Counted from the stretch's first letter, positions 36,103 to 48,459 are shown. The stretch: DNA of 50,737 nucleotides from Candidatus Binatia bacterium (GCA_036407055.1 DASWZY010000062.1:1-50737); one strand, 5' to 3'. The notes: generated from the sequence alone by a model not told the origin. Numbers and translations: made by a program.

Positions 36103-37095
36103 TTATTTGCCGTACAGCTTGGCGACGAAGCCGCTGTCTTCCAATTCTTTTAGGAAGCGCGGCTCGACGAAACGCTTCGGGTCTGCGCCCTTCGCCTTGG
36201 GATTCGTTTTCGCGAGATCGTCGATGATCGCCTCGATCCCCTTCTCCGTCGGATACGGCACCCGCGCCATGAACTTGATCGCATAGGCGTCGTAGGATTC
36301 TTCCAGCGCCTCGGGATCGTTGGTGTTCATCAGCTTCGCGATCACTTTCAAGCTCGCCGGCTTGTTGGTCTTGAAGTAGTGAATGCCCTCGACGAACGCC
36401 TTCGTGAGGCGGCGCACGAGGTCCTCTTTCTTGTCGATAACCGTGCGCGTGGTCGCGAGCGAGGTGCCGAGATAATCGAGCCCAAGATCGACAAGCGCGA
36501 CGAGGCGGTTGAAGCCCGCCTTCTGCGCCTTGGTCGTGAGCGGCGGCTGGAACAGCGCCGCGTCCACCCTGCCGGACTGGAGCGCGAGATAGCGGTCCGG
36601 CGGCCCGCCGATCGAGACCAGCGCGACGTCCTTGTCGGGCTCGAGCCCCCACTTCTTCAAAGCGACCGTCGCGCCGTAGTAGTCCGAAGATCCGGGACGC
36701 GCGATGCCGATGCGCTTGCCCTTGAGATCGGCCGGCTTCTTGATCGACGGCGCGGCGAACACAGAATGCTCCAACACGTTGACGAAGCTCATCAGGATCG
36801 CGGTGTCCGCGCCCGACAGATTGGCCGCGACCGAGGACGGCCCGGCGAAGATGTTGAAATCGACGCTGCCGGAGATCAGCGCGGCGGTGTTGGTGGGGCC
36901 GCCGACGATGTAGACGATCTGCGGCTCGATGCCGTACTTGGCGAAGATGCCGGCGTCACGCGTGAGGTAGAGAATCGCCTGCGACGCGGACATCGCGCTG
37001 TGCGCGATCGGCACCTTGTCGAGCGCCGCGCTGGAGCCGGCGCCGGAAAGGATCAGGAGCGAGGACGCCGCCAACGCCTTGAGACTCAGTCGCAT
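36103..37095 (-). CDS. NMT1-like ABC transporter substrate-binding protein
   Basis: The start at MRLSLKALAASSLLILSGAGS gives a signal peptide. ATG 37095 overlaps the VOC stop (TAATG). It is a paralogue of 30976..31962. Confidence 0.7.
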   Translation of the reverse strand: MRLSLKALAASSLLILSGAGSSAALDKVPIAHSAMSASQAILYLTRDAGIFAKYGIEPQIVYIVGGPTNTAALISGSVDFNIFAGPSSVAANLSGADTAILMSFVNVLEHSVFAAPSIKKPADLKGKRIGIARPGSSDYYGATVALKKWGLEPDKDVALVSIGGPPDRYLALQSGRVDAALFQPPLTTKAQKAGFNRLVALVDLGLDYLGTSLATTRTVIDKKEDLVRRLTKAFVEGIHYFKTNKPASLKVIAKLMNTNDPEALEESYDAYAIKFMARVPYPTEKGIEAIIDDLAKTNPKAKGADPKRFVEPRFLKELEDSGFVAKLYGK

Positions 37096-37529
37096 TATTT
37101 CCTCCGCCCCCGGCGCCGCCGGACGAATTTGTTGCGGTTGCAAGCGACCTCGACGCGGTTGCCGTCGGGGTCGAGGAAGCTGACCGAACGGTTCTGCGCG
37201 ACCTCCAGAATCTCGGGGCCGCTGACGATCTCGATGCCGCGCTTCTGTAAAACCGGATAGAGCTTGTCGACGGCCTTGTCGTCGTCGACGTAGACGCAGA
37301 AGTGATGCAGCCCCGGGATGCCGTCGCCGGCGATCCGCTTCGCGCCGCGCGGCAGCTCCATCAAAGCGATGTCGTGGTGCTCGGCGCCGAAGCTCAAGAA
37401 CGACATCTTCGTGCGCGCGTTGCGCCCCGAGACCGCCATGCCGAGAATATCGCGGTAAAAGCGCTCGGACTTTTTCAAGTCCCGCACGTTCAAGACGACG
37501 TGGCCCAGGACGCCGCGCGCAATAGCCAT
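37095..37529 (-). CDS. VOC-family protein (glyoxalase / extradiol dioxygenase fold)
   Basis: LGHVVLNVRDLKKSERFYRDILGM is a typical VOC N-terminal module, and HHFCV is also present. Size is 144 aa. Confidence 0.8.
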   Translation of the reverse strand: MAIARGVLGHVVLNVRDLKKSERFYRDILGMAVSGRNARTKMSFLSFGAEHHDIALMELPRGAKRIAGDGIPGLHHFCVYVDDDKAVDKLYPVLQKRGIEIVSGPEILEVAQNRSVSFLDPDGNRVEVACNRNKFVRRRRGRRK

Positions 37530-37614
37530 TGCGCTAACTTTTAGACGGGAAGGAAGAAGGTGTCAAGAAAGCGCCGGCGCGGGCACGGGCATGAGACCGG
37601 TTCGGGATTAGAAA

Positions 37615-37953: not shown

Positions 37954-38580
37954 TCAGAGCTCCAACGCCTGCCAATCGGTGCCGGCTCTGTGGATCGTGA
38001 CCTGATGACTGTGGACGGCATCGAACATTCTCGCCGGCGTAACGGCAAGCAGATTGTAGCTGCACAGCGCGACGATTCTGTGCTTCTGTAACATTTCCTG
38101 GTTGAAGCCGTTCTCGTACTCTATGAATAGCCGCCAATCGTCTTCGCTGACAAATGAGGTATTGGTGGCAATGCGAAGACCGCTGTAGCCGGCGGCCAGC
38201 GCTTCGCGCTCCTCCGCGAGCCAGTGTTCGACGACATTTAAGCCGCGGAGGCTATTCCCGTTAACGTACCAGCCGCCGGCATCGACGATACGCATCTGTT
38301 TGTCGGCGATCATTCGGTCCAATCCCGCCACGGCTGCTTCGAGGTCACGCTTCGCGTCGGCCATCTCGTACGGCGCGGCCGTGACCCAGACGCACCGTTC
38401 ACGGTTTTTCAACCCGGCCTCGAAGTACGGCACGAGAGTTTGCGCGAGGTCTTCGCGTCTCAAATACCACTGGCAGATATGGCTACCCCAGCGCAGATCC
38501 TCGATGCCGCAGATTCCGGACGGGGTAGTCGCCGCTAACGGCGTTGTTCTCGCCCTTGCCGTCTCCAATTTCAACTCCAA
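37954..38580 (-). CDS. MEDS-domain protein
   Basis: The pattern GSHICQWYLRREDLAQTLVPYFEAGLKNRERCVWV, followed by RIVALCSY, fits the MEDS (DcmR-like sensory) domain. Confidence 0.65.
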   Translation of the reverse strand: MELKLETARARTTPLAATTPSGICGIEDLRWGSHICQWYLRREDLAQTLVPYFEAGLKNRERCVWVTAAPYEMADAKRDLEAAVAGLDRMIADKQMRIVDAGGWYVNGNSLRGLNVVEHWLAEEREALAAGYSGLRIATNTSFVSEDDWRLFIEYENGFNQEMLQKHRIVALCSYNLLAVTPARMFDAVHSHQVTIHRAGTDWQALEL

Positions 38581-38800
38581 TCGAGCTTCCGTGTTACTCC
38601 CTACCTCAAGGATAACGCTAATAACCCGAGTTTGGATTTCGCATTATGAAAAAATTTTACCTGCATCGGGATATTTTTTCCTTATTTTTTAAATCCGGGA
38701 GCAGCTTTATGGCGTTTTATTTTTGTGTAAGCGCGACACGACAAGATCATGCTGCGGGCTCCTTGATTTCTGACCGCTTGACTGACAAAATTCCGCCTGC

Positions 38801-39430
38801 ATGACCTTCGCCGCGGTGCGCTCGATGAAAACGCTCGGGGATGTTCTCTATGCCGAGAAGTCAAAGTCTTGCGTATCCGAGGACGAGTGGCTCGAGCTTG
38901 TCCGCGGCGTCGCGGCCGGCGACCAGCAGGCGCTTCATTCCTTATACGAGAAGGCGCATCGAATCGTTTTTACGCTGATCATGCGCATAACCGCCAATCG
39001 AGAAACCGCCGAAGAAGTCACGGTCGACGTCTTCCACGACGTGTGGCGCAAAGCGTCGGCCTACGATCCCGCCAACGGATCGGTCGTCGGCTGGATCATG
39101 AATCAGGCGCGCAGCAGGGCTATCGATCGGCTGCGGTTCGATCAGCGAAAAAAGCGGGTGGACCCTTATCCGCACAGCTTGGGGCCGACAACGGACATGG
39201 TCGATCCTCAACAAGCCTGTCTGTTCGAGGAGCAGAGCCGGATGTTGCGGTATGCGCTGGAGCTCCTGACCCCGGAGGAACGAACGTCGATCGAAACCGC
39301 CTTTTTCTCCGAATTGACTTACGAAGAGGCGGCAAAGCAGCTGAATCAGCCCCTCGGAACCGTCAAGACGCGAATTCGCTCGGGATTGCGAAAACTTCGA
39401 GAGGCGCTGGGAAGGAATAAGATCGCATGA
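38801..39430 (+). CDS. ECF-type RNA polymerase sigma factor
   Basis: The region 2 pattern is ETAEEVTVDVFHDVWRKASAYD. The region 4 pattern is LTYEEAAKQLNQPLGTVKTRIRSGL. The exact start is uncertain. Confidence 0.85.
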   Translation: MTFAAVRSMKTLGDVLYAEKSKSCVSEDEWLELVRGVAAGDQQALHSLYEKAHRIVFTLIMRITANRETAEEVTVDVFHDVWRKASAYDPANGSVVGWIMNQARSRAIDRLRFDQRKKRVDPYPHSLGPTTDMVDPQQACLFEEQSRMLRYALELLTPEERTSIETAFFSELTYEEAAKQLNQPLGTVKTRIRSGLRKLREALGRNKIA

Positions 39431-40008
39431 TCGCAAAAGCGGGTGCACATAGCCAAGAGCATCAGGAGCTTGTGTCGCTGTTCGCCTTACATGCGATTCC
39501 ATCGCTTGAGATCGCCGCGGCCGAGGCACAAATCGCATCGTGCGCGAAGTGCCGCCGCGAACTCGAAACGCTCCGGCCGGTCGTCCGCTCGTTCGCCGGC
39601 TGGTCCACCGATGTGTTGCGCCCCGCGGAATCCCTATGGGGCCGGCTCGCGGAGCGCGTCGCCGGAGAAACGGGCACCGCGCCGTTCATGCCTCCTCCAC
39701 AAGCGCGAATTAAGCCGGAGTGGGAGGAGCCGGCGCCCGGTATCCACGTCCAAATACTCGCGCGGAACGCTCAAACCGATAGCGTGAGCATGCTGGTCCG
39801 GCTCGAGCCGGGAACCGATTATCCCGCGCATAGGCATGCCGGCGTCGAGGAATTGCATCTTCTCCACGGCGTATTGAAGGTCGACGACAGAACACTCTAT
39901 CCCGGCGATTTTATTCGCAGCGAGGCGGGCACCGTCGACCGTCGCGTGTGGAGCATCACCGGATGCACCTGCTTTCTCGTGACCTCCACCAAAGACTCGC
40001 TTTTCTGA
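39427..40008 (+). CDS. ChrR-type anti-sigma factor (zinc-binding N-domain + C-terminal cupin)
   Basis: There is a 4-nt overlap with the sigma gene. The N-terminal H..(x)..CAKC motif is ZAS-like. The C-terminal region YPAHRHAGVEELHLLHG is cupin-like. Confidence 0.75.
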   Translation: MIAKAGAHSQEHQELVSLFALHAIPSLEIAAAEAQIASCAKCRRELETLRPVVRSFAGWSTDVLRPAESLWGRLAERVAGETGTAPFMPPPQARIKPEWEEPAPGIHVQILARNAQTDSVSMLVRLEPGTDYPAHRHAGVEELHLLHGVLKVDDRTLYPGDFIRSEAGTVDRRVWSITGCTCFLVTSTKDSLF

Positions 40009-40031
40009 TTTCTCAGGTTTGATCGAGTCTT

Positions 40032-40394
40032 ATGCCTATTCCGATTCTGGTTGTCGACGACGAGCCCAACTTCCTGATGCTGATGCGAAAGGCTTTGGGA
40101 AGACGCGGCTTCGAGGTCAGCATCGCGGCGACGGCGTCTGCGGCGCTCGATCTGCTCGATCACGAGTTCTTCAACTTCGCTCTCGTCGACCTGCGGCTCG
40201 GCGGCGGCAGCGGCATGGAGCTGCTCGCCGATCTCAAGCAGCGCAAACCGAACGTCCACGCGATCGTCGTGACGGGCTACCCCAGCGACGAGACGCGCGC
40301 AGCCGCCAGAGATAACGGCGCATCGGCGTACCTGATCAAGCCCGTGACCATTAACAATCTGTTCGATGCCATGACGAAAATCCTCACGAACTGA
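40032..40394 (+). CDS. Single-domain response regulator (CheY-like receiver)
   Basis: ILVVDDE and ALVDLRLGGGSG (phospho-acceptor Asp) are present, together with VVTGY and YLIKP. Confidence 0.9.
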   Translation: MPIPILVVDDEPNFLMLMRKALGRRGFEVSIAATASAALDLLDHEFFNFALVDLRLGGGSGMELLADLKQRKPNVHAIVVTGYPSDETRAAARDNGASAYLIKPVTINNLFDAMTKILTN

Positions 40395-40534: not shown

Positions 40535-40756
40535 ATGGCCTACGAGTACCAACCGTGGACCATCGTGCTCCGCTGTTATCGCTGCCAGGGCAAGTTCACC
40601 GTGACCGATGTTTCATTTTCGAAGGTCGCCGCGCTGCCGCTCGTAACCCCGTGCCCGCACTGCCGCGCGCGGCCCTTCGTCTCTGCAAGAGAAGATGAAA
40701 GCAGAGTCCACCGGGTCTTCGACCTTCGCCGTCGCGGGCACGCCGACGCGGCATAA
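40535..40756 (+). CDS. Small zinc-ribbon protein, paralogue 1
   Basis: WTIVLRCYRCQGKFTV...CPHC...HRVFDL. The pattern is shared with the two following genes. Confidence 0.55.
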   Translation: MAYEYQPWTIVLRCYRCQGKFTVTDVSFSKVAALPLVTPCPHCRARPFVSAREDESRVHRVFDLRRRGHADAA

Positions 40757-40773
40757 TCGACCGCGCGGGTCGC

Positions 40774-41001
40774 CTATGCATCCTCGCGCGTTAAACGAAC
40801 GATTAGATGCCGCCGCGGCATTCGCGGAAAGCATGTCGCGGCGTCGGCCTTCGCCGCGCAATGAGGGCAGACGGTGGAATCGGCTGTTGTCCGGATCTCT
40901 GTCGCCGCGATTCCGTTTACGGGGAATTCACCCCCGCATTCGTAGCACCGCAGCTGCAAGGACCAACTACGGCTCATACTTATGACGTAGCCAATATCCA
41001 T
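40774..41001 (-). CDS. Small zinc-ribbon protein, paralogue 2
   Basis: WSLQLRCYECGGEFPV...CPHC...HLIVRL. Confidence 0.55.
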   Translation of the reverse strand: MDIGYVISMSRSWSLQLRCYECGGEFPVNGIAATEIRTTADSTVCPHCAAKADAATCFPRMPRRHLIVRLTREDA

Positions 41002-41078
41002 CGTTCGGGAAGTAGAGGAGATTACTGATCGGTATTACTTCACGGATTGTCCCGATTAAATTCAGCCGGAGGGCGCTT

Positions 41079-41288
41079 ATGCCGGATCGCGGTAAATGGA
41101 CGCTTCGGTGTCAGAACTGCCAGAAAGACTTTCAAGTCGTGGTGAAGCCCGGCGAGCGGCTCAGCGATTTCGCGCGCTATCGCCCGTGCCCGCGCTGCGG
41201 CACGAAGCCGGACGACGTGAGCGACCATCGGTCGCTGGGAACATGGCACCACGTGATCGATTTTCGGAGCATTAAAGAACCGACATGA
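41079..41288 (+). CDS. Small zinc-ribbon protein, paralogue 3
   Basis: WTLRCQNCQKDFQV...CPRCG...HHVIDF. Confidence 0.55.
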   Translation: MPDRGKWTLRCQNCQKDFQVVVKPGERLSDFARYRPCPRCGTKPDDVSDHRSLGTWHHVIDFRSIKEPT

Positions 41289-41321
41289 ATGCCATCCGAT
41301 GCGGGCGGCTGTCGCGCAAAC

Positions 41322-41525
41322 TTAACCGCCGTCGGTCGGCGGTGGAAGGAGGCAAAAGCTGCATTCGGCAAAGTGCCGCTTTGTGATGCACTCCAAGCAC
41401 AGAGCCGCGCTCAGACTGTTCTCCACGGTCTCCAGCTGAAGATAATCGCTCTTCGGCCAGGTGCTGCAATTCTGGCAGAAGTGCCACTTTTCGCTGCCGT
41501 TCCTTCGCCGGTAAGTTACGTTCAT
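41322..41525 (-). CDS. Small Cys-rich protein (WHFCxNCxxWP type)
   Basis: 67 aa. The motifs KWHFCQNCSTWP and CLEC give a four-Cys pattern. It is a different family from the three preceding genes. Confidence 0.45.
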   Translation of the reverse strand: MNVTYRRRNGSEKWHFCQNCSTWPKSDYLQLETVENSLSAALCLECITKRHFAECSFCLLPPPTDGG

Positions 41526-42104: not shown

Positions 42105-42259
42105 AAAACCTCCCTGCTAATGACTTCCGTGTAGTCCATGCCGTTACCTTGGCAATGGCACACGACGGCGAGGGTGGATATCGGGGAAGGCCCTATTTTA
42201 GGTTCGTAAGTCCTGGTACGGGAGTCAGGCTTGCATAGATGAATAGCTCGGAAGACTCA

Positions 42260-42400
42260 ACGTCGCGGTAAAAGCGCTCAGACTTTTTCAAGTCCCGCAC
42301 GTTCAAGACGACGCGGCCCAGGAGCGCGGGAGGGAGAGGCATTGCGCTAAGTTTTGGGTTGGAAAAGAAAGAGGTTTAGCAACGGCGAGCGGGTGCGGTT
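42260..42400 (-). pseudogene. Duplicate fragment (copy B) of the VOC gene 5' end plus leader
   Basis: It aligns by eye to 37449-37590. The minus-strand translation MPLPPALLGRVVLNVRDLKKSERFYRD compares with MAIARGVLGHVVLNVRDLKKSERFYRD in the intact gene. Confidence 0.75.
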
Positions 42401-42519: not shown

Positions 42520-42700
42520 AGACGACATCTGGTGCGCCGGTTGCGCCCGGAGACCGCCATGCCGAGAACGTCGCGGTAAAGCGCTCGGAGTTCTTCAAGA
42601 CCGGAGGTTCAGGAGGACTGGCCCCAAGACTGCGGGAGGGATTGCAACAGTGGATAAGTTTTTGACGGGAAGAAGGAAGGTGGCAAGAAATGGGGTTGGC
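42520..42700 (-). pseudogene. Duplicate fragment (copy C) of the VOC gene 5' end plus leader, decayed
   Basis: It aligns to about 37400-37575. It contains a stop (..LLNLRS*) and a 1-nt deletion (cggtaaagcg versus cggtaaaagcg) relative to the intact gene. Confidence 0.7.
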
Positions 42701-42795: not shown

Positions 42796-43704
42796 ATGGC
42801 AGTACCCGATTTCCAATCGTTCTTTAAGCCGCTACTGGAACTCGCTTCTGACGGGATTGAGCATTCAGTCGCAGAAGCTCGGGAAAAGATCGCGCAAACA
42901 ATGGGCGTATCCAGTCAGGATCAGGCCGAGTTATTGCCTAGCGGCACTCAAACAAAATTTGACAATCGAGTGGCTTGGGCAAAGAGCTATTTCATTCAGG
43001 CCAAAGTACTCGAAGCGACTCGTCGCGGGCATTTTCGAATCACGGACAGAGGGCATGAGCTGTTGGCCAAAAGGCATCCTCGCATCGATGTTCGGATTCT
43101 TGATCAATATCCTGAGTTTGTTGAGTTTCATACAGCTACTAACGATGGTGACGAGACCAAGCCTGACACTCCGCCAACAACGGCTGAGACTCCCGAGGAG
43201 GTTTTGCAGAAGGCGTATCAAGGAATCCGCCATGAATTGGCTGGTGAAATGCTCAATCGGATAAAAGCAAACTCTCCTCGCTTTTTCGAATTACTCGTCG
43301 TCGACCTAATGGTTGCAATGGGGTACGGCGGATCAAGAGCTGACGCAGGTAAAGCAATAGGCCAGACCGGCGATGAAGGCATTGATGGGATCATCAAAGA
43401 AGATCGACTGGGCCTCGATATCATTTACCTGCAAGCCAAGAGATGGGAAGGAACCGTCGGCAGGCCTGAGATTCATAGATTTGTTGGCGCTCTCCATGGC
43501 AAACGCGCGAGGAAAGGCGTCTTTATCACTACCGGCCGTTTCTCCGAGGATGCGATCAATTATGTGAACAGCATCGATCCAAAAGTCATACTAATAGATG
43601 GCCGCACGCTCGCAAATCTAATGATTGATTTCAATCTGGGAGCTAACACTACAGCTAACTATGAAATTAAACGTATCGATTCCGATTATTTCGGGGAAGA
43701 ATAA
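42796..43704 (+). CDS. mrr: Mrr-type restriction endonuclease (Mrr_N winged helix + Mrr catalytic domain)
   Basis: The N-terminus is MAVPDFQSFFKPLLELASDG. The catalytic region is GDEGIDGII...DIIYLQAKRW..(D..(Q/E)xK). GAGG lies upstream of the ATG. GC is low. Confidence 0.85.
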   Translation: MAVPDFQSFFKPLLELASDGIEHSVAEAREKIAQTMGVSSQDQAELLPSGTQTKFDNRVAWAKSYFIQAKVLEATRRGHFRITDRGHELLAKRHPRIDVRILDQYPEFVEFHTATNDGDETKPDTPPTTAETPEEVLQKAYQGIRHELAGEMLNRIKANSPRFFELLVVDLMVAMGYGGSRADAGKAIGQTGDEGIDGIIKEDRLGLDIIYLQAKRWEGTVGRPEIHRFVGALHGKRARKGVFITTGRFSEDAINYVNSIDPKVILIDGRTLANLMIDFNLGANTTANYEIKRIDSDYFGEE

Positions 43705-43752
43705 CGATGCTCACATTGGCTAAAGAAAAGCTTTTAGCGCACGGCCTGCTCA

Positions 43753-45366
43753 ATGCACCGTCACATTTCATTGCCCGCACCGCCGCGCGTCAGAGCGATT
43801 AGAAAGCCTCGTTCAGGTACCGTGAAATATATAACGCACTTTCCTACACCGGTCCTTACTGACCTCGTGAACGGCCGCTGGTTGCCAACCGTAGGGGCAG
43901 GACTATCACGCAACGCGGTTACTCCGGACGGTAAGCCGATTCCCTTATGGAGTGAGCTCGGTGATCAGGTAAACAAAGATCTCGGAGATTACTCTCCTAC
44001 CGGCCCCATTGATGCGCTATCTGCATTCGAACATGAGTTTGGACGGCCGAAACTTATTGAGAGATTGGCCGATCTATTGCGCGTAGACATCGCCCGGCCA
44101 GGTGATGCACACAAGGCGTTCTGTAAATTGCCTTTTGAGCTTGTTTGCACAACGAATTTCGATTTTCTACTCGAACGGCAGTATGAAATTATCCCTCGAC
44201 ATTGCACACCCCTCATTGAGGAGGATCAACTCTCAGTAAACCTCGACAAATCAGGTACAGGTCTTCTTAAATTACATGGCGATCTCAATCATCCGACGCG
44301 TCTTGTAGTCACAGAAGCCGACTATGATTCTTTTCTTGAACGATTTCCACTTTTAGCAACTTTCCTCGCAAATCTTCTGATCACCCGGACAGCAGTGCTT
44401 ATAGGTTATAGTCTCGATGATCCAGATTTTCGCCAGATATGGCAGGTTGTAGGCGAACGACTTGGCCGATCACGACGGATCGCCTACGTCATTATGGTTG
44501 GAGCTAAGCCATCGGACATAGCACGTTTTGAACGGAGGGGTGTGAAAACAATCAATCTTCCTGGCAGTCGAAATCGCTATGGGGAAGTACTCACCAGTGT
44601 ATTCAATGAACTTTACGAATACTGGCAAGAGCGAGTTATTCCAGCCAGTAGGGTGAGAGAAGAAGAGCCCCTTCGGCAGCTTTCGCTTCCACGCGATGCT
44701 AATACCCGCCTCTGTTATTTTGCAATACCTCTGGCGCTTGAGCCGTTTTATCGTGAACGAGTGTTCCCAATCGTTCGCGAAGTGGGGTTCGTCCCGGTTA
44801 CCGCCGACGATATAGTTTCACCCGGGGATAATATAATAGCCAAGATTGATGCACTCTTGGAACGTGCTCTTCTTGCAGTTGTTGAGGCCGCAACCGCAGC
44901 AACTTTGTCTGAACTTCAGCTCGCCATGATGCGACTTGGCTCTGAACGGGTTCTGGTAATTACTCCCGAAGGATCACGTCCTCCGATACAGATCGGCCAG
45001 CCTTATTCCATCTCGCGTCCAGAAATGACAACAGTAGACCCCGTCGACTTCCTGATGCGACTCAGGGAATGGTTCGAAGTCGCGGCTAAAATTCACTTGG
45101 CCGCGTTTTCAGGAGAACCCAGTCGCCTTCTCATGGTCAAAGCTCCAACGTCGCGCGTGGTCTCACTCCGACAAATGCTTGATTTTGTCGTTCAGCAAGG
45201 GCTTGTTTCTCAAGACGACACCGCGAACATTATCGATTGGCTCCGCATTCGGAATGAAGCCGTGCACAGTAGAAAGGTAATACAACGCGATACCGCTGAG
45301 GAGATTGTTTCTGGGGTCTTAGCAATCGTGAAACGAATGAATGATCAATTTGGGGTGAAAGGCTGA
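43753..45366 (+). CDS. SIR2-family (SIR2_2-type) protein fused to a TIR/nucleoside-deoxyribosyltransferase-like Rossmann module and a C-terminal HEPN-like (Rx4H) domain
   Basis: SIR2 motifs are LPTVGAGLS, TTNFDFLLE (Asn135), LLKLHGDLNHP (His175) and LIGYSLDDPDF. The middle region is CYFAIP...VFPIVREVGFVPVTADDI...IIAKIDALLERALLAVVEAA...LVI. The C-terminus has WLRIRNEAVHS (R500-x4-H505, nt 45250-45267). The start is uncertain: ATG 43753, or GTG 43822 preceded by a 31-codon ORF at 43707..43802. Confidence 0.7.
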   Translation: MHRHISLPAPPRVRAIRKPRSGTVKYITHFPTPVLTDLVNGRWLPTVGAGLSRNAVTPDGKPIPLWSELGDQVNKDLGDYSPTGPIDALSAFEHEFGRPKLIERLADLLRVDIARPGDAHKAFCKLPFELVCTTNFDFLLERQYEIIPRHCTPLIEEDQLSVNLDKSGTGLLKLHGDLNHPTRLVVTEADYDSFLERFPLLATFLANLLITRTAVLIGYSLDDPDFRQIWQVVGERLGRSRRIAYVIMVGAKPSDIARFERRGVKTINLPGSRNRYGEVLTSVFNELYEYWQERVIPASRVREEEPLRQLSLPRDANTRLCYFAIPLALEPFYRERVFPIVREVGFVPVTADDIVSPGDNIIAKIDALLERALLAVVEAATAATLSELQLAMMRLGSERVLVITPEGSRPPIQIGQPYSISRPEMTTVDPVDFLMRLREWFEVAAKIHLAAFSGEPSRLLMVKAPTSRVVSLRQMLDFVVQQGLVSQDDTANIIDWLRIRNEAVHSRKVIQRDTAEEIVSGVLAIVKRMNDQFGVKG

Positions 45367-45395
45367 ATAGGCTCTTGTCATCAAGTAGGCCTGCA

Positions 45396-46616
45396 ATGAT
45401 ACTAACGAGAGAAGTCACAGATTTGCTGCTAATTAGCAAAGCTATTATCGATACCGTGAGATTTCAGCTTGGCGGTGCGCCGGATCGCCATTCTTTGGCT
45501 CTTCGCATTCTCGCGGCTCATGATGCTGCAGAACTGTGCCTTTCTGCTATCGGCAATGCCCGTGGAAAGATGCCGAATAAATCACAACGCTTTTTGATGG
45601 ATTACTTTGAACCCTTGAAAACATTGCATCCGAGGAGCGAAGTGGCGGGCAAAGAATACTTCAACCAGCTCAACAGGGTCAGAGTCGCTATTAAACATCA
45701 TGGTATCTTTCCAGATGCAAGGCAATGGGACACAGTAGGTGAAAATGTTTATAAGTACATGTCCAAATGGTGCGCTAAGTATCTAAGCGTTAATTTGGAG
45801 GATCTTGATGAATCAGTCTTACTAGAGAACGTGAAAGCCAAAGCGAATTATATCGAAGCAAAACAATGCGTCGAGCAACAAAGTTACAAAGGAGCTCTTG
45901 AGAATATCGCGTTAGCGTTACACATAATTTTGGACACAAACCCAGCCGTGCGCGGCTTAATGGTTGGATCTGCACATGCCGAAGATGCCATTAAGCTCGC
46001 GACGTTCGGAGTCCAAGCAAATGACTTCTTAACGCTGCAAAATTTCCTTCCGAAAATATTCTCTAGCGGCGAAGAACGTGGCGCCCATTGGGATCAGGAG
46101 CAATTTGGACACCCTGGAAACTGGAATAGAGAAACCTGTCTGTTTTGCCTGAAGGCATTCCTCGACGTGGCACTCAAGATTCAGCATGCACCGAAAATTC
46201 CTGGACCAACGAAATTCGGTGATGTTTACGAATACAAAATAACTGCGCTAAAGGATCGGACGGAAATTCGGAATTTTCCCGAAAGTCCCTACGGGATTGA
46301 TAAACATAAAATCTTAAAAACTCTGTCTCGCGGTGAATCAATAAGAGGAATCGTTACTGTATTAAAAAGTGACCCTCTGTTCGAATCAATTGTTTTAGGA
46401 ATACCTCCGCGAAAAACGGAACTCAAAATTGAATCGACGTCGGAGCATTTGAATGGCTTCGTTAAAGAAGAGGACGTTCATGTCACATGTGTACCAAAAC
46501 AGAATACTTATGTTAAAAGCTCTTTTCCTGATCTTCCTGAGATTAACTGGCAGAAAGGTCGAATGTTCGACTTGATCCGTACACGCTTTAAAGACTCGGA
46601 GGATTCGGCCGATTAG
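45396..46616 (+). CDS. Hypothetical protein with an N-terminal HEPN-like helical domain (Rx4H) and a C-terminal beta-rich region
   Basis: The helical N-terminus runs ..ILAAHDAAELCLSAIG.. and then LNRVRVAIKHHG (R-x4-H, nt 45681-45698). The gene begins 30 nt after the SIR2 stop (alternative TTG start at 45375). GC is about 40% by spot count. No family was recognised. Confidence 0.55.
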   Translation: MILTREVTDLLLISKAIIDTVRFQLGGAPDRHSLALRILAAHDAAELCLSAIGNARGKMPNKSQRFLMDYFEPLKTLHPRSEVAGKEYFNQLNRVRVAIKHHGIFPDARQWDTVGENVYKYMSKWCAKYLSVNLEDLDESVLLENVKAKANYIEAKQCVEQQSYKGALENIALALHIILDTNPAVRGLMVGSAHAEDAIKLATFGVQANDFLTLQNFLPKIFSSGEERGAHWDQEQFGHPGNWNRETCLFCLKAFLDVALKIQHAPKIPGPTKFGDVYEYKITALKDRTEIRNFPESPYGIDKHKILKTLSRGESIRGIVTVLKSDPLFESIVLGIPPRKTELKIESTSEHLNGFVKEEDVHVTCVPKQNTYVKSSFPDLPEINWQKGRMFDLIRTRFKDSEDSAD

Positions 46617-46671: not shown

Positions 46672-46881
46672 TAGCGCTCCGCTTGAAGCGTGAGTGCTGC
46701 ATCGACAACCCCCCGCTTGCTCTCTCCCCTTCTATATCGTAAGACTTCCCCCATGAAGCTCGGCGTCTTCGATCATTTGCAGAAGAACGACCGCCCGGAA
46801 TTGTCGTACCAGGACCTCTACGCGCGCCATCTCGACATGGTCGAGTACCTCGATCAGGCAGGGTTCGACCTGACGCGTTAG
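46672..46881 (+). pseudogene. Duplicated leader + first 42 codons of the LLM oxidoreductase gene (truncated copy)
   Basis: Positions 46672-46869 align to 47218-47450; the intact copy carries an extra insert of about 35 nt. MKLGVFDHLQKNDRPELSYQDLYARHLDMVEYLDQAGFD then diverges and stops at 46881. Confidence 0.8.
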
Positions 46882-46912: not shown

Positions 46913-47170
46913 ATGAGACGTAAGCAGCATACTAATGAGTTGCGCCCGGAGTACAACTTTGACTATTCCAAAGCTGTGCGTGGTAAGTATTACCGGCGCA
47001 TTTTGAAGGAGGGCGCGAACGTTGTCATCCTTGAACCCGACGTGGCCAAGGCGTTCCGCGACTCCGCTGCCGTCAACGATGCACTGCGTGTGCTTCTTGC
47101 CGCTGCCCGTTCATCCCGGCGCCCAACTTCCCGCCAAACACGGGCGTCGCGTCAACGCGCCGCCGGTTAG
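46913..47170 (+). CDS. Small antitoxin-like protein (EY.F.YSKAVRGKYY ... LEPDVAKAFRDSAAVNDALR signature), orphan
   Basis: 85 aa. The motif pair resembles small type II antitoxin-like proteins that I recall from other genomes. No cognate toxin ORF is visible next to it. Confidence 0.4.
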   Translation: MRRKQHTNELRPEYNFDYSKAVRGKYYRRILKEGANVVILEPDVAKAFRDSAAVNDALRVLLAAARSSRRPTSRQTRASRQRAAG

Positions 47171-47334
47171 TGGAACGTCTGGGCATCGGCGGTGAATTTT
47201 CTATTCGGACACCGTTTGTAGCGCGCTCCGCTCGAAGCGGTGAGCGCTGCATCGATGCCTGTTCCCGAGGCAACTGGCTCTTCTTTTCCCGCCCCCGCTT
47301 GCACCCTTCCCTTCTATATCGTAAGACTTCCCCC

Positions 47335-48459
47335 ATGAAGCTCGGCGTCTTCGATCACCTGCAGAAGAACGACCGCCCGGAATTGTCGTATCAGGACCTT
47401 TACGCGCGCCATCTCGACATGGTCGAGTATCTCGACCGGGCGGGGTTCGACTACTACTTCGTCGCCGAGCATCATTTCGATCTGGGCTTCGCCGAGTGCC
47501 CGAGCGCGGGCGCGTGGATGGCCGCGGCGTCGCAGCGCACCAAGCGCATCCGCCTGGGCCCGCTCGTCTACGTGCTGCCGCTCTGGCATCCGGTGCGCGT
47601 CGCGGAGGAAGTCGCGTTTCTCGACAACGTGACCGGCGGCCGGTACGAGTGCGGCATCGGCAGCGGCATCGGCAAGTACGCCTTCTCCGCCTACGACGCG
47701 CCGTGGGACGAGAAGAACGACGTCACCTGGGAGGCCTACAAGATCATCAAGGGCATGTGGAGCAACCCGGGCGGCTTCAGCCACCGGGGAAAATATTTCA
47801 AGGTCGACAACGCCGAGCTGAATATCCCCTTGGTGCAGAAGCCGCACCCGCCGCTGTGGATGCCGACGCGGAGCCCCGAATCGGTCGCGGCGGCGGCGCG
47901 CGAGGGCTTCAGCACCGTGCAGTGGTGCCCGCCCAAGATGGACGTCGTGCGCGAGATCTTCGATTATTTCCGCGAGACCTACCACAAGACGAAGCCCGCG
48001 GGCCCGCGGCCGAGCGTCGCGCTGATGCGCCAGATGTACGTCGGCGAGACCGACAAGAAAGCCTACGAGGAATCCAAGGACCACTGGATTTATTTCTGGC
48101 ACCGCGTCGGCGGCGGCCGGGCGTACGGCGGCTACGGCAACGAGAACCTCGCCAACATCACGCGCGAGGAGCGGAAGAAAGAGCTGCTCGACGTCGACAA
48201 CGCGATCCGCGAGGGCTCGTTCATCTGCGGCTCGCCCGAAACGGTCGTCAAGCAGATCGAGAAGATCGCCCGCGAGGCCGGCGCCGACACCTTCCTCGGC
48301 GAGTTCACCTTCGGCGCGCTGGAGCATGACCAGGTGATGCGGTCGCTCAAGCTCTTCGCCGAGCGCGTGATGCCCGAGCTGAAAAACTTGGCGATCGACG
48401 CGCTCGACTATCCCAAGAAGGGCTACCGCGTCTGGCTCAAGCCCTCGGCGACGGCGTAG
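47335..48459 (+). CDS. LLM-class (luciferase-like) flavin/F420-dependent oxidoreductase
   Basis: MKLGVFDHL...YYFVAEHHF...LGPLVYVLPLWHPVRVAEE is typical of luciferase-like monooxygenases. The ORF upstream of ATG 47335 is leader. Confidence 0.8.
   Translation: MKLGVFDHLQKNDRPELSYQDLYARHLDMVEYLDRAGFDYYFVAEHHFDLGFAECPSAGAWMAAASQRTKRIRLGPLVYVLPLWHPVRVAEEVAFLDNVTGGRYECGIGSGIGKYAFSAYDAPWDEKNDVTWEAYKIIKGMWSNPGGFSHRGKYFKVDNAELNIPLVQKPHPPLWMPTRSPESVAAAAREGFSTVQWCPPKMDVVREIFDYFRETYHKTKPAGPRPSVALMRQMYVGETDKKAYEESKDHWIYFWHRVGGGRAYGGYGNENLANITREERKKELLDVDNAIREGSFICGSPETVVKQIEKIAREAGADTFLGEFTFGALEHDQVMRSLKLFAERVMPELKNLAIDALDYPKKGYRVWLKPSATA

Follow-up and report, generated by a model that had tools for sequence, protein, structure and literature searches.

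Three genes of a predicted defence island in Candidatus Binatia: an Mrr nuclease, a SIR2/TIR-like/HEPN protein and an R-x4-H protein that do not travel together

The three genes of the island

We analysed a stretch of 50,737 nucleotides from Candidatus Binatia bacterium (GCA_036407055.1 DASWZY010000062.1:1-50737), referred to here as the window. At approximately 42.8-46.7 kb it holds three open reading frames (ORFs) on the same strand, numbered genes 1 to 3, which encode an Mrr nuclease, a protein with SIR2, TIR-like and HEPN domains, and a protein of a large unnamed family (Table 1). No further long ORF lies within this island, which is the lowest-GC stretch of the window: the fraction of guanine plus cytosine (GC) is 0.49 for the Mrr gene, about 0.49-0.50 for gene 2 and 0.44 for gene 3, compared with 0.62 for the first 41 kb. 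An earlier interpretation made from the DNA alone (the sequence-only reading) had described three co-directional genes in the lowest-GC part of the window, which agrees with what we find, and had proposed that they form a single cassette, which does not. We assign a probability of about two in three to the interpretation that the locus is a small, horizontally acquired defence island made up of three single-gene modules, arranged head to tail, that are unrelated and each mobile on its own. The defence role, hydrolysis of NAD+ (NADase activity), cleavage of RNA (RNase activity) and the mode of activation discussed below are predictions.

Gene 1 is an ordinary member of the Mrr family of type IV modification-dependent restriction endonucleases, of the E. 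coli type. It carries both defining domains, the Mrr_N winged helix (Pfam, 1.4e-29) and the Mrr_cat PD-(D/E)xK nuclease (1.3e-34), and it matches the PADLOC mREase_IV model across positions 1-300 of 317 (1e-88), with no notable difference from the type, so that its description as a canonical Mrr stands. Its product would cut modified incoming DNA.

Table 1. Features in and around the island, with positions counted from the first nucleotide of the window (aa, amino acids; NDT, nucleoside 2-deoxyribosyltransferase)
Feature	Position	Strand	Remarks
Gene 1, Mrr type IV modification-dependent restriction endonuclease	42796..43704	+	302 aa
Gene 2, stand-alone SIR2/TIR-like/HEPN protein	43822..45366	+	514 aa from GTG 43822
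Gene 2, SIR2 NADase-type domain	43870..44532	+	Asn135 at 44155-44157, His175 at 44275-44277
Gene 2, central TIR-like Rossmannoid domain	44704..45027	+	TIR / DNPH1-NDT fold
Gene 2, C-terminal HEPN domain	45040..45342	+	truncated in the window copy; R500-N-E-A-V-H505 at 45250-45267
Gene 3, stand-alone protein of a large unnamed family	45396..46616	+	406 aa
Gene 3, R96-V-A-I-K100-H101 motif	45681..45698	+	context LNxxRxxxKHxG
Gene 3, C-terminal beta-rich SH3-like domain	46227..46505	+	Foldseek, weak E-values
Right border, orphan copy of a luciferase-like monooxygenase gene start: upstream region and codons 1-38	46675..46869	+	
Right border, intact copy of the same sequence	47222-47451		true gene start 47335
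ORF between the two right-border copies	46913-47170		85 aa
Left border, degenerate copies of the 5' end of a VOC/glyoxalase-like gene	42259-42355 and 42522-42690	-	
Sequence matched by the left-border copies	37400-37570		
Intact VOC/glyoxalase-like gene	37095-37529	-	
Upstream regulatory cluster	37954-40394		
MEDS-domain protein	37954-38580	-	
ECF sigma factor	38801-39430	+	
ChrR-like cupin anti-sigma factor	39427-40008	+	
Stand-alone response-regulator receiver	40032-40394	+	
Cluster of small ORFs with zinc-ribbon patterns	40535-41525		four ORFs, 65-75 aa
Zinc-ribbon-pattern ORF 1	40535-40756	+	
Zinc-ribbon-pattern ORF 2	40774-41001	-	
Zinc-ribbon-pattern ORF 3	41079-41288	+	
Zinc-ribbon-pattern ORF 4	41322-41525	-	

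Domain architecture of gene 2

Gene 2 is taken to start at GTG 43822 because the N-termini of its homologues match there: they begin MxxKY(I/L)xxFP, and the GTG codon yields MKYITHFP. Starting instead at ATG 43753, which opens an ORF of 537 amino acids, would prepend 23 non-homologous residues, and the 499-residue start chosen by the gene caller would cut off invariant residues. Residue numbers in gene 2 (N135, H175, R500, H505 and so on) follow the 537-residue ORF, and conservation was scored over 116 full-length aligned relatives, the window copy included.

The N-terminal domain matches Pfam SIR2_2 (1.5e-23) and the PADLOC models for ThsA (1.7e-25) and Dsr2 (5.8e-20). The ThsA and Dsr2 matches, including that to the NCBIfam Dsr2 model, are limited to the SIR2 part of the protein (residues ~40-255). 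Both N135 and H175 are present in 116 of 116 relatives, and with the SIR2_2 match they identify a defence-type SIR2 domain with predicted NADase activity, as had been read from the sequence.

The region beyond the SIR2 domain was modelled for an intact homologue (P0002) from a 19-sequence alignment, with a predicted local distance difference test score (pLDDT) of 86.6 and a predicted template modelling (TM) score of 0.82. In the model a beta/alpha domain of five strands precedes a helical bundle. Foldseek searches of the PDB matched the first of these, at probability 1.0 and a target TM score of ~0.6, to TIR domains (TIR-STING 9lmr/9lmq, the SPARTA TIR-APAZ protein and the MyD88 TIR domain) and, equally well, to DNPH1 and the nucleoside 2-deoxyribosyltransferases (probability 1.0, target TM ~0.6). 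The sequence-only reading, which had proposed a TIR- or NDT-like module at this point, is thereby borne out at the level of the fold. Under lenient settings, Pfam searches of 19 members of the family returned sub-threshold matches to TIR_2 (4/19) and CAP12-PCTIR_TIR (3/19). Residues D352, P357-G358 and E387 are each kept in 112-115 of the 116 relatives (E387 in 114). Judged from the model and the alignment, the D-x3-P-G loop and E387 would lie about where the BB-loop and the catalytic glutamate of TIR domains sit; the domain may be catalytic, may bind a ligand or may serve purely for oligomerisation. The second half of this domain is the least conserved stretch of the family, with a top-residue frequency of 0.42-0.46 compared with 0.77 for the SIR2 domain. 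Because it is the most variable stretch, it is a candidate sensing surface, or a surface that changes under pressure from phage evasion.

The C-terminal tail carries the R-x4-6-H motif of HEPN domains, with a polar residue after the arginine. R500 and H505 are each present in 115 of 116 relatives, N501 in 114 and W496 in 114-115; further upstream, E455 and R458 are found in all 116. Weak Pfam matches recur in this region among the 19 members scanned, to Hypoth_Ymh (13 members), DUF4145 (6), HEPN_RiboL-PSP (6) and the HEPN domain of Csm6 (1); we take Hypoth_Ymh and DUF4145 to be families of the HEPN clan. A PDB sequence-profile search with the C-terminal region returned nothing meaningful. The architecture of the gene 2 family is thus SIR2/TIR-like/HEPN, and it is reasonable to regard gene 2, from its domains and conserved residues, as a candidate single-protein defence gene.

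The window copy of gene 2 departs from its family in one respect. It lacks a 25-residue segment (GEYRAAVIAAITLLExxLRxRLDLP) that is kept in all of the 115 other aligned members, and at the DNA level the loss is a clean, in-frame deletion of 75 nucleotides with its junction at 45138/45139. In the AlphaFold model of the intact homologue the segment makes up all of helix 170-188 in the C-terminal bundle, and few stretches of the C-terminal half are as well conserved in the family. Because a conserved core helix is removed, the HEPN domain of this particular copy is probably impaired. The HEPN tail claimed for gene 2 is therefore upheld for the family, in its conserved motif and its recurrent weak HEPN-type matches, and the claim falls short for the window copy, where a core helix of the bundle is absent. 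The family itself is large, with more than 1,235 clusters at 90% identity, nearly all of ~535 amino acids and full length.

Gene 3 belongs to a large unannotated family

The most plausible start of gene 3 is ATG 45396, 29 nucleotides past the gene 2 stop codon, and the gene encodes a stand-alone protein of about 406 amino acids. It is without a match in Pfam, PADLOC or NCBIfam, in keeping with its earlier description as unrecognised. An exhaustive profile search (E<=1e-3) nonetheless places it in a large family of 2,131 representatives at 50% identity, with 76 close clusters. The protein has three domains: a helical, HEPN-like one at the N-terminus, a second helical one in the centre that bears a GHPGNW motif, and an SH3-like beta domain at the C-terminus.

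Across 75 relatives, diverged to ~20% identity, the residues R96, K100, H101, G103, P219 and N242 are invariant, and L92, N93, G238, H239 and W243 are nearly so. Numbering here is from ATG 45396; R96 and H101 are the R103 and H108 of the sequence-only reading. The R-x4-H motif is thus the most conserved feature of the family. The structure of gene 3 was modelled at a pLDDT of 90.5, and the only sensible Foldseek matches of its N-terminal domain, all weak, were to minimal HEPN toxins (7bxo, 1o3u, 5yep and 4nqf; probability 0.4-0.75, target TM 0.45-0.62). Scattered family members also matched the CARF_HEPN, Csx1, HEPN and HEPN_Apea models below threshold. Of the earlier claim that gene 3 holds an R-x4-H motif in a HEPN-like context, the motif is secure and the assignment to HEPN is weakly supported.

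The beta-rich C-terminus that had been noted in the sequence proved to resemble SH3-like domains, with weak E-values: lysostaphin (4lxc_C), a phage SH3 domain protein (probability 0.97, target TM 0.52) and endolysin-type binding modules were among the matches. A PDB sequence-profile search with gene 3 yielded nothing meaningful. Homology between the HEPN region of gene 2 and the N-terminal domain of gene 3 was considered and rejected (hhalign probability <1%); the sole local alignment superposes the two R-x4-H motifs. A viral origin was likewise rejected: IMG/VR contigs hold no relatives of gene 3 and one of gene 2, and BFVD returned only partial matches to the SH3-like domain.

Genes 2 and 3 do not travel together

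The sequence-only reading held that two adjacent HEPN-bearing proteins form a heteromeric RNase cassette, and had named beforehand a lack of co-occurrence between their homologues as an outcome that tells against it. We examined 80 genome loci carrying gene 2 relatives, from species-representative genomes, and 80 metagenome loci carrying gene 3 relatives, all found through short conserved peptide patterns. Every ORF of >=60 amino acids in the 160 loci was searched with the family hidden Markov models and the Mrr sequence. All anchor genes were recovered, which served as a positive control. A gene 3 relative was found in 0 of the 80 gene 2 loci (72 of which had room downstream), and a gene 2 relative in 0 of the 80 gene 3 loci (41 with room upstream); a close Mrr relative was found in none of the 160. 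Searching at E<1e-2 with a profile of 75 diverged relatives of gene 3 left the result unchanged.

The nearest relatives, at loci L161-L166, were judged from gene and Pfam tables and agree with the wider sample. The homologue that is 60% identical to gene 3 (P0122) has a KAP NTPase gene and a zeta-like gene on one side and a Phd/PIN pair on the other, without genes 1 or 2, and the three homologues that are 63-73% identical to gene 2 (P0007, P0005 and P0003) have neither gene 3 nor Mrr alongside. P0122, which is the closest gene 3 homologue, and P0003 come from the same metagenome (JGI 3300036860), on different contigs. No other conserved neighbour of either family was detected in an all-against-all comparison of flanking ORFs of 90 amino acids or more, in which the largest cluster reached 4 of 80 loci. 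Because their homologues never co-occur in the examined loci, genes 2 and 3 are best read as independent modules and not as partners in one system.

Neighbourhoods, distribution and decay of the two families

Both families are distributed patchily, and the 80 gene 2 loci span more than ten bacterial phyla and one archaeon (Methanobacterium). The immediate neighbours of gene 2 relatives include ThsB-like TIR proteins, type III methyltransferase, DrmD, BrxH, Cas1, Mrr_cat proteins, resolvases, and integrases or recombinases. The commonest is the ThsB-like TIR, in 6 of 80 loci, with a best ThsB match of 5e-47. The TIR gene lies directly upstream on the same strand in three loci (L027, L047 and L048), and in the others it is found downstream, in the opposite orientation or at a distance of over 1 kb; the remaining 74 loci, like the island in the window, have no adjacent TIR gene. 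In the vicinity of P0007 there is a DUF4062-AAA_16-WD40 protein of the NLR/STAND type. P0003, which is the 73% identical homologue, adjoins a divergent 450-residue protein with TIR_2 and DnaB_C/AAA_25 domains (L166, 127-1479, minus strand).

A dense defence island on Agrobacterium fabrum pAt1 (L167, NZ_CP048560.1 23170-38765) carries a gene 2 homologue, WP_262519055.1, that is annotated merely as "SIR2 family protein". It stands in a row with ImmA/IrrE-HTH, GNAT, multiubiquitin-ThiF-DUF6527 and dCTP deaminase genes before it and VapBC after it, and it offers a handy cultured source of an intact homologue. The neighbours of gene 3 relatives include type I restriction endonucleases, IetA, PbeA, LmuA, mREase_IV, PIN proteins and IS66/IS200 transposases. 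A defence-island lifestyle is fairly well supported for gene 2 and more weakly for gene 3.

Both families are often broken. Frameshifts split the gene 2 homologue in 7 of 80 loci (L003, L012, L019, L024, L049, L057 and L071), and a homologue on a Bradyrhizobium plasmid (NZ_CP064685.1) also matches in two pieces. Single in-frame nonsense codons interrupt five independent gene 3 homologues (L084, L118/L119, L123, L139/L145 and L156/L157), four of them at conserved tryptophan or aromatic positions by changes of the TGG to TAG/TGA type. The pattern points to a gene that, being costly or toxic, has been inactivated repeatedly, and not to recoding. Frequent breakage is as expected of costly or toxic effectors, and the deleted gene 2 of the window fits the same description.

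Borders and surroundings of the island

Both edges of the island are marked by duplicated sequence. On the right, the orphan copy of the monooxygenase gene start forms a 160-nucleotide direct repeat, at 93% identity, with the intact gene (Pfam Bac_luciferase, 1e-56), which begins 582 nucleotides beyond the orphan. The 85-residue ORF between the two copies contains the motif EYNFDYSKAVRGKYY and is without a Pfam match. The duplication and this ORF look like the scar of an insertion or recombination event. On the left, two degenerate copies of the 5' end of a VOC/glyoxalase-like gene, 79-87% identical by blastn to the corresponding part of the intact gene region, lie upstream of gene 1; they have no Rfam match and are pseudo-fragments, not an RNA element. 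The border scars indicate past rearrangement at the site and single out no particular mechanism. A search for tRNA genes or Rfam elements as marks of an integration site found none, and no integrase is present. Promoter and terminator scans did no better on the real than on shuffled sequence and are uninformative on operon structure.

We also considered a common insertion hotspot beside UbiD, as the closest gene 3 homologue (L162) likewise has a UbiD gene in its vicinity, in the opposite orientation. The two UbiD genes are only ~30% identical and the flanks are not syntenic by blastn or tblastx, and the idea was rejected.

Upstream of the island lies a regulatory cluster with genes for a MEDS-domain protein, an ECF sigma factor, a ChrR-like cupin anti-sigma factor and a stand-alone response-regulator receiver. 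It is followed by four small paralogous ORFs with CxxC...CPxC zinc-ribbon patterns, one of which has sub-threshold matches to zinc-ribbon families in Pfam.

Predicted mechanism

Several steps can be proposed for how the two families might act. Gene 2 would encode a single-chain abortive-infection protein, in which a phage cue acting on the C-terminal TIR-like/HEPN half would cause oligomerisation, as in TIR assemblies and HEPN dimers. The oligomerised protein would then hydrolyse NAD+ at the SIR2 site (N135/H175), and the R-N-xxx-H site of the HEPN domain could serve as a second effector, an RNase, or as a regulatory dimer interface. The family therefore raises the question of whether one protein serves for both NAD+ depletion and RNA cleavage. 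The allele in the window would keep at most the SIR2 and TIR-like functions and is probably HEPN-defective. Gene 3 could be a stand-alone HEPN-type RNase toxin or a protein resembling those of abortive infection (Abi), a role that we propose with low confidence, and its SH3-like domain may bind a ligand or trigger.

As a tentative proposal, to which we give somewhat less than an even chance, the gene 2 family would constitute a single-protein immune system not described before, with TIR-type, SIR2 NADase and HEPN RNase modules, each with conserved catalytic-type residues, combined in one chain by a logic like that of Thoeris, and the gene 3 family would be a second, unannotated stand-alone defence or toxin family, the two not being partners. 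If this is true, the catalogue of defence systems would gain two new entries. The island is not a categorically new multi-gene system, and the gene 3 family, though unannotated, is of uncertain kind.

Alternative explanations

Some of our observations weigh against a reading of the island as independent defence modules. Retrieval of 80 loci per family through peptide patterns could miss rare lineages in which the two genes co-occur. In the window itself genes 2 and 3 are only 29 nucleotides apart, with no convincing terminator between them, and co-transcription is therefore likely here; a locally evolved interaction between the two products is conceivable. The HEPN assignment of gene 3, drawn from weak fold matches and sub-threshold profiles, is no more than plausible. 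Many metabolic genes are also found among the neighbours of gene 3 relatives, and the defence enrichment is qualitative, being taken from aggregate neighbour tables without a matched background.

The alternative that survives best is that genes 2 and/or 3 are not immune genes at all and are either selfish, toxin-like or regulatory hitch-hikers in variable regions, or decaying remnants without function. We consider this unlikely. The metabolic neighbours of gene 3, the frequency of broken copies, the damaging deletion in gene 2 of the window and the lack in either gene of any defence annotation beyond the SIR2 domain could all be accommodated by such an explanation. However, the catalytic-type residues are strongly conserved across large, ancient families whose members repeatedly adjoin bona fide defence systems. 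Furthermore, to our knowledge SIR2_2 domains with such an Asn/His pair are NADase effectors in all characterised cases (ThsA, DSR1/2, SIR2-HerA and SPARSA).

A less probable explanation, to which we attach about the weight of a long shot, is that gene 2 is a divergent ThsA in which the TIR-like domain has replaced SLOG as the receptor of a TIR-made nucleotide, with a ThsB-like TIR protein encoded nearby or elsewhere. The SIR2 domain is indeed closest to that of ThsA by both PADLOC (1.7e-25) and PDB (3.5e-18) comparison, ThsB-like TIR genes are the commonest immediate neighbours, and the TIR-DnaB_C protein beside P0003 could be counted on the same side. These associations are outweighed by the 74 of 80 loci, and the window, without an adjacent TIR gene, by the mixed orientations of the TIR genes where they occur, and by an alignment to ThsA that extends over the SIR2 part only, with no STALD/SLOG signal and a TIR/NDT fold in its place. 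TIR genes are in any case common in defence islands.

Least probable is the proposal of a single cassette, made up of genes 2 and 3 and perhaps also Mrr, in which a heteromeric HEPN RNase is coupled to NAD+ depletion by SIR2: the shared strand, short gap and common low-GC island, and the strongly conserved R-x4-H in both proteins, are set against the lack of co-occurrence in 160 loci and in the closest relatives of each gene, helical domains without detectable homology, a GC content in gene 3 lower than that of gene 2, which hints at separate origins, and the loss, in gene 2 of the window, of a core helix from the very domain proposed to pair.

The independent-module reading carries a general implication: adjoining positions in a defence island do not count as evidence that genes form a system, and a simple co-occurrence test suffices to split an operon-like trio into its independent parts. 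The gene 2 and gene 3 families are large, conserved, uncharacterised and readily testable, despite the probably damaged local copy of gene 2, and the gene 3 family in particular is a large unannotated group, part of the protein dark matter, in which a candidate active site stands out clearly.

Comparison with known systems

No named system in PADLOC 2.0, NCBIfam 20 or Pfam claims gene 2 or gene 3, and PADLOC coverage of the two genes does not extend beyond the SIR2 part. In the literature that we searched, neither a SIR2-TIR-like-HEPN protein nor the gene 3 family is described, and the 2013 survey of HEPN domains makes no mention of SIR2.

Among proteins with a HEPN-type active site, HepT of the HEPN-MNT systems and the HEPN-type Abi proteins resemble genes 2 and 3 in placing R-x4-6-H on a helical bundle, and the N-terminal domain of gene 3 gives weak fold matches to such toxins. 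HepT is paired with an MNT antitoxin, whereas the gene 2 and gene 3 families have neither MNT nor any other conserved neighbour. Compared with the minimal HEPN toxins, gene 3 adds ~270 residues of helical and SH3-like domains, and no Abi model in PADLOC matches either family. The middle domain of gene 2 shares its fold with TIR-STING, the TIR-APAZ protein of SPARTA, the ThsB TIR and DNPH1/NDT, although in sequence the similarity to TIR domains is merely sub-threshold.

ThsA is the best sequence match of gene 2 in both PADLOC and the PDB, and the two have in common an N-terminal defence-type SIR2 domain, the same catalytic Asn/His pair and a Rossmannoid domain following it. They differ in that the second domain of gene 2 has the TIR/NDT fold and no recognisable SLOG/STALD domain, and in that gene 2 has an additional HEPN domain. 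The PADLOC ThsA model is matched at positions 19-230 of 478 only, without a match to STALD, and the solved structures of ThsA, DSR2 and KomC align to the gene 2 profile only at positions <=234 of 534, so that the SLOG domain of ThsA is without a counterpart in gene 2. ThsA also has a partner in ThsB, whereas the gene 2 family has no obligate one, with a ThsB-like neighbour in 6 of 80 loci and none in the window. Since SLOG is missing and most loci, like the window, have no TIR gene, gene 2 is not classed with Thoeris; a minority subclade may depend on a partner in the Thoeris manner.

DSR1 and DSR2 are similar to gene 2 in being stand-alone single genes with an N-terminal SIR2 NADase effector, homologous to that of gene 2, and a non-catalytic or sensing region at the C-terminus. 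They are proteins of ~1,000-1,250 amino acids with large helical sensors, in contrast to ~535 amino acids with TIR-like and HEPN domains, and gene 2 scores 68 bits against the NCBIfam Dsr2 model and 15 bits against Dsr1, where the cut-off is 1,400. SIR2-HerA, SPARSA (SIR2-APAZ/pAgo) and Avs5 (SIR2-STAND) are set apart from the island, as no HerA, pAgo/APAZ or STAND domain was found in any of the three proteins. The architecture thus falls outside the SIR2 systems named here, as the sequence-only reading had suspected. SIR2 NADases recur as effectors of bacterial immunity, and every characterised SIR2 system that we know of pairs the NADase with a distinct sensor: SLOG in Thoeris, a large helical region in DSR1/2, HerA, pAgo or STAND. 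A compact and widespread family that joins SIR2 to a TIR-like and a HEPN domain, with catalytic-type residues conserved in all three, would give this series a new wiring.

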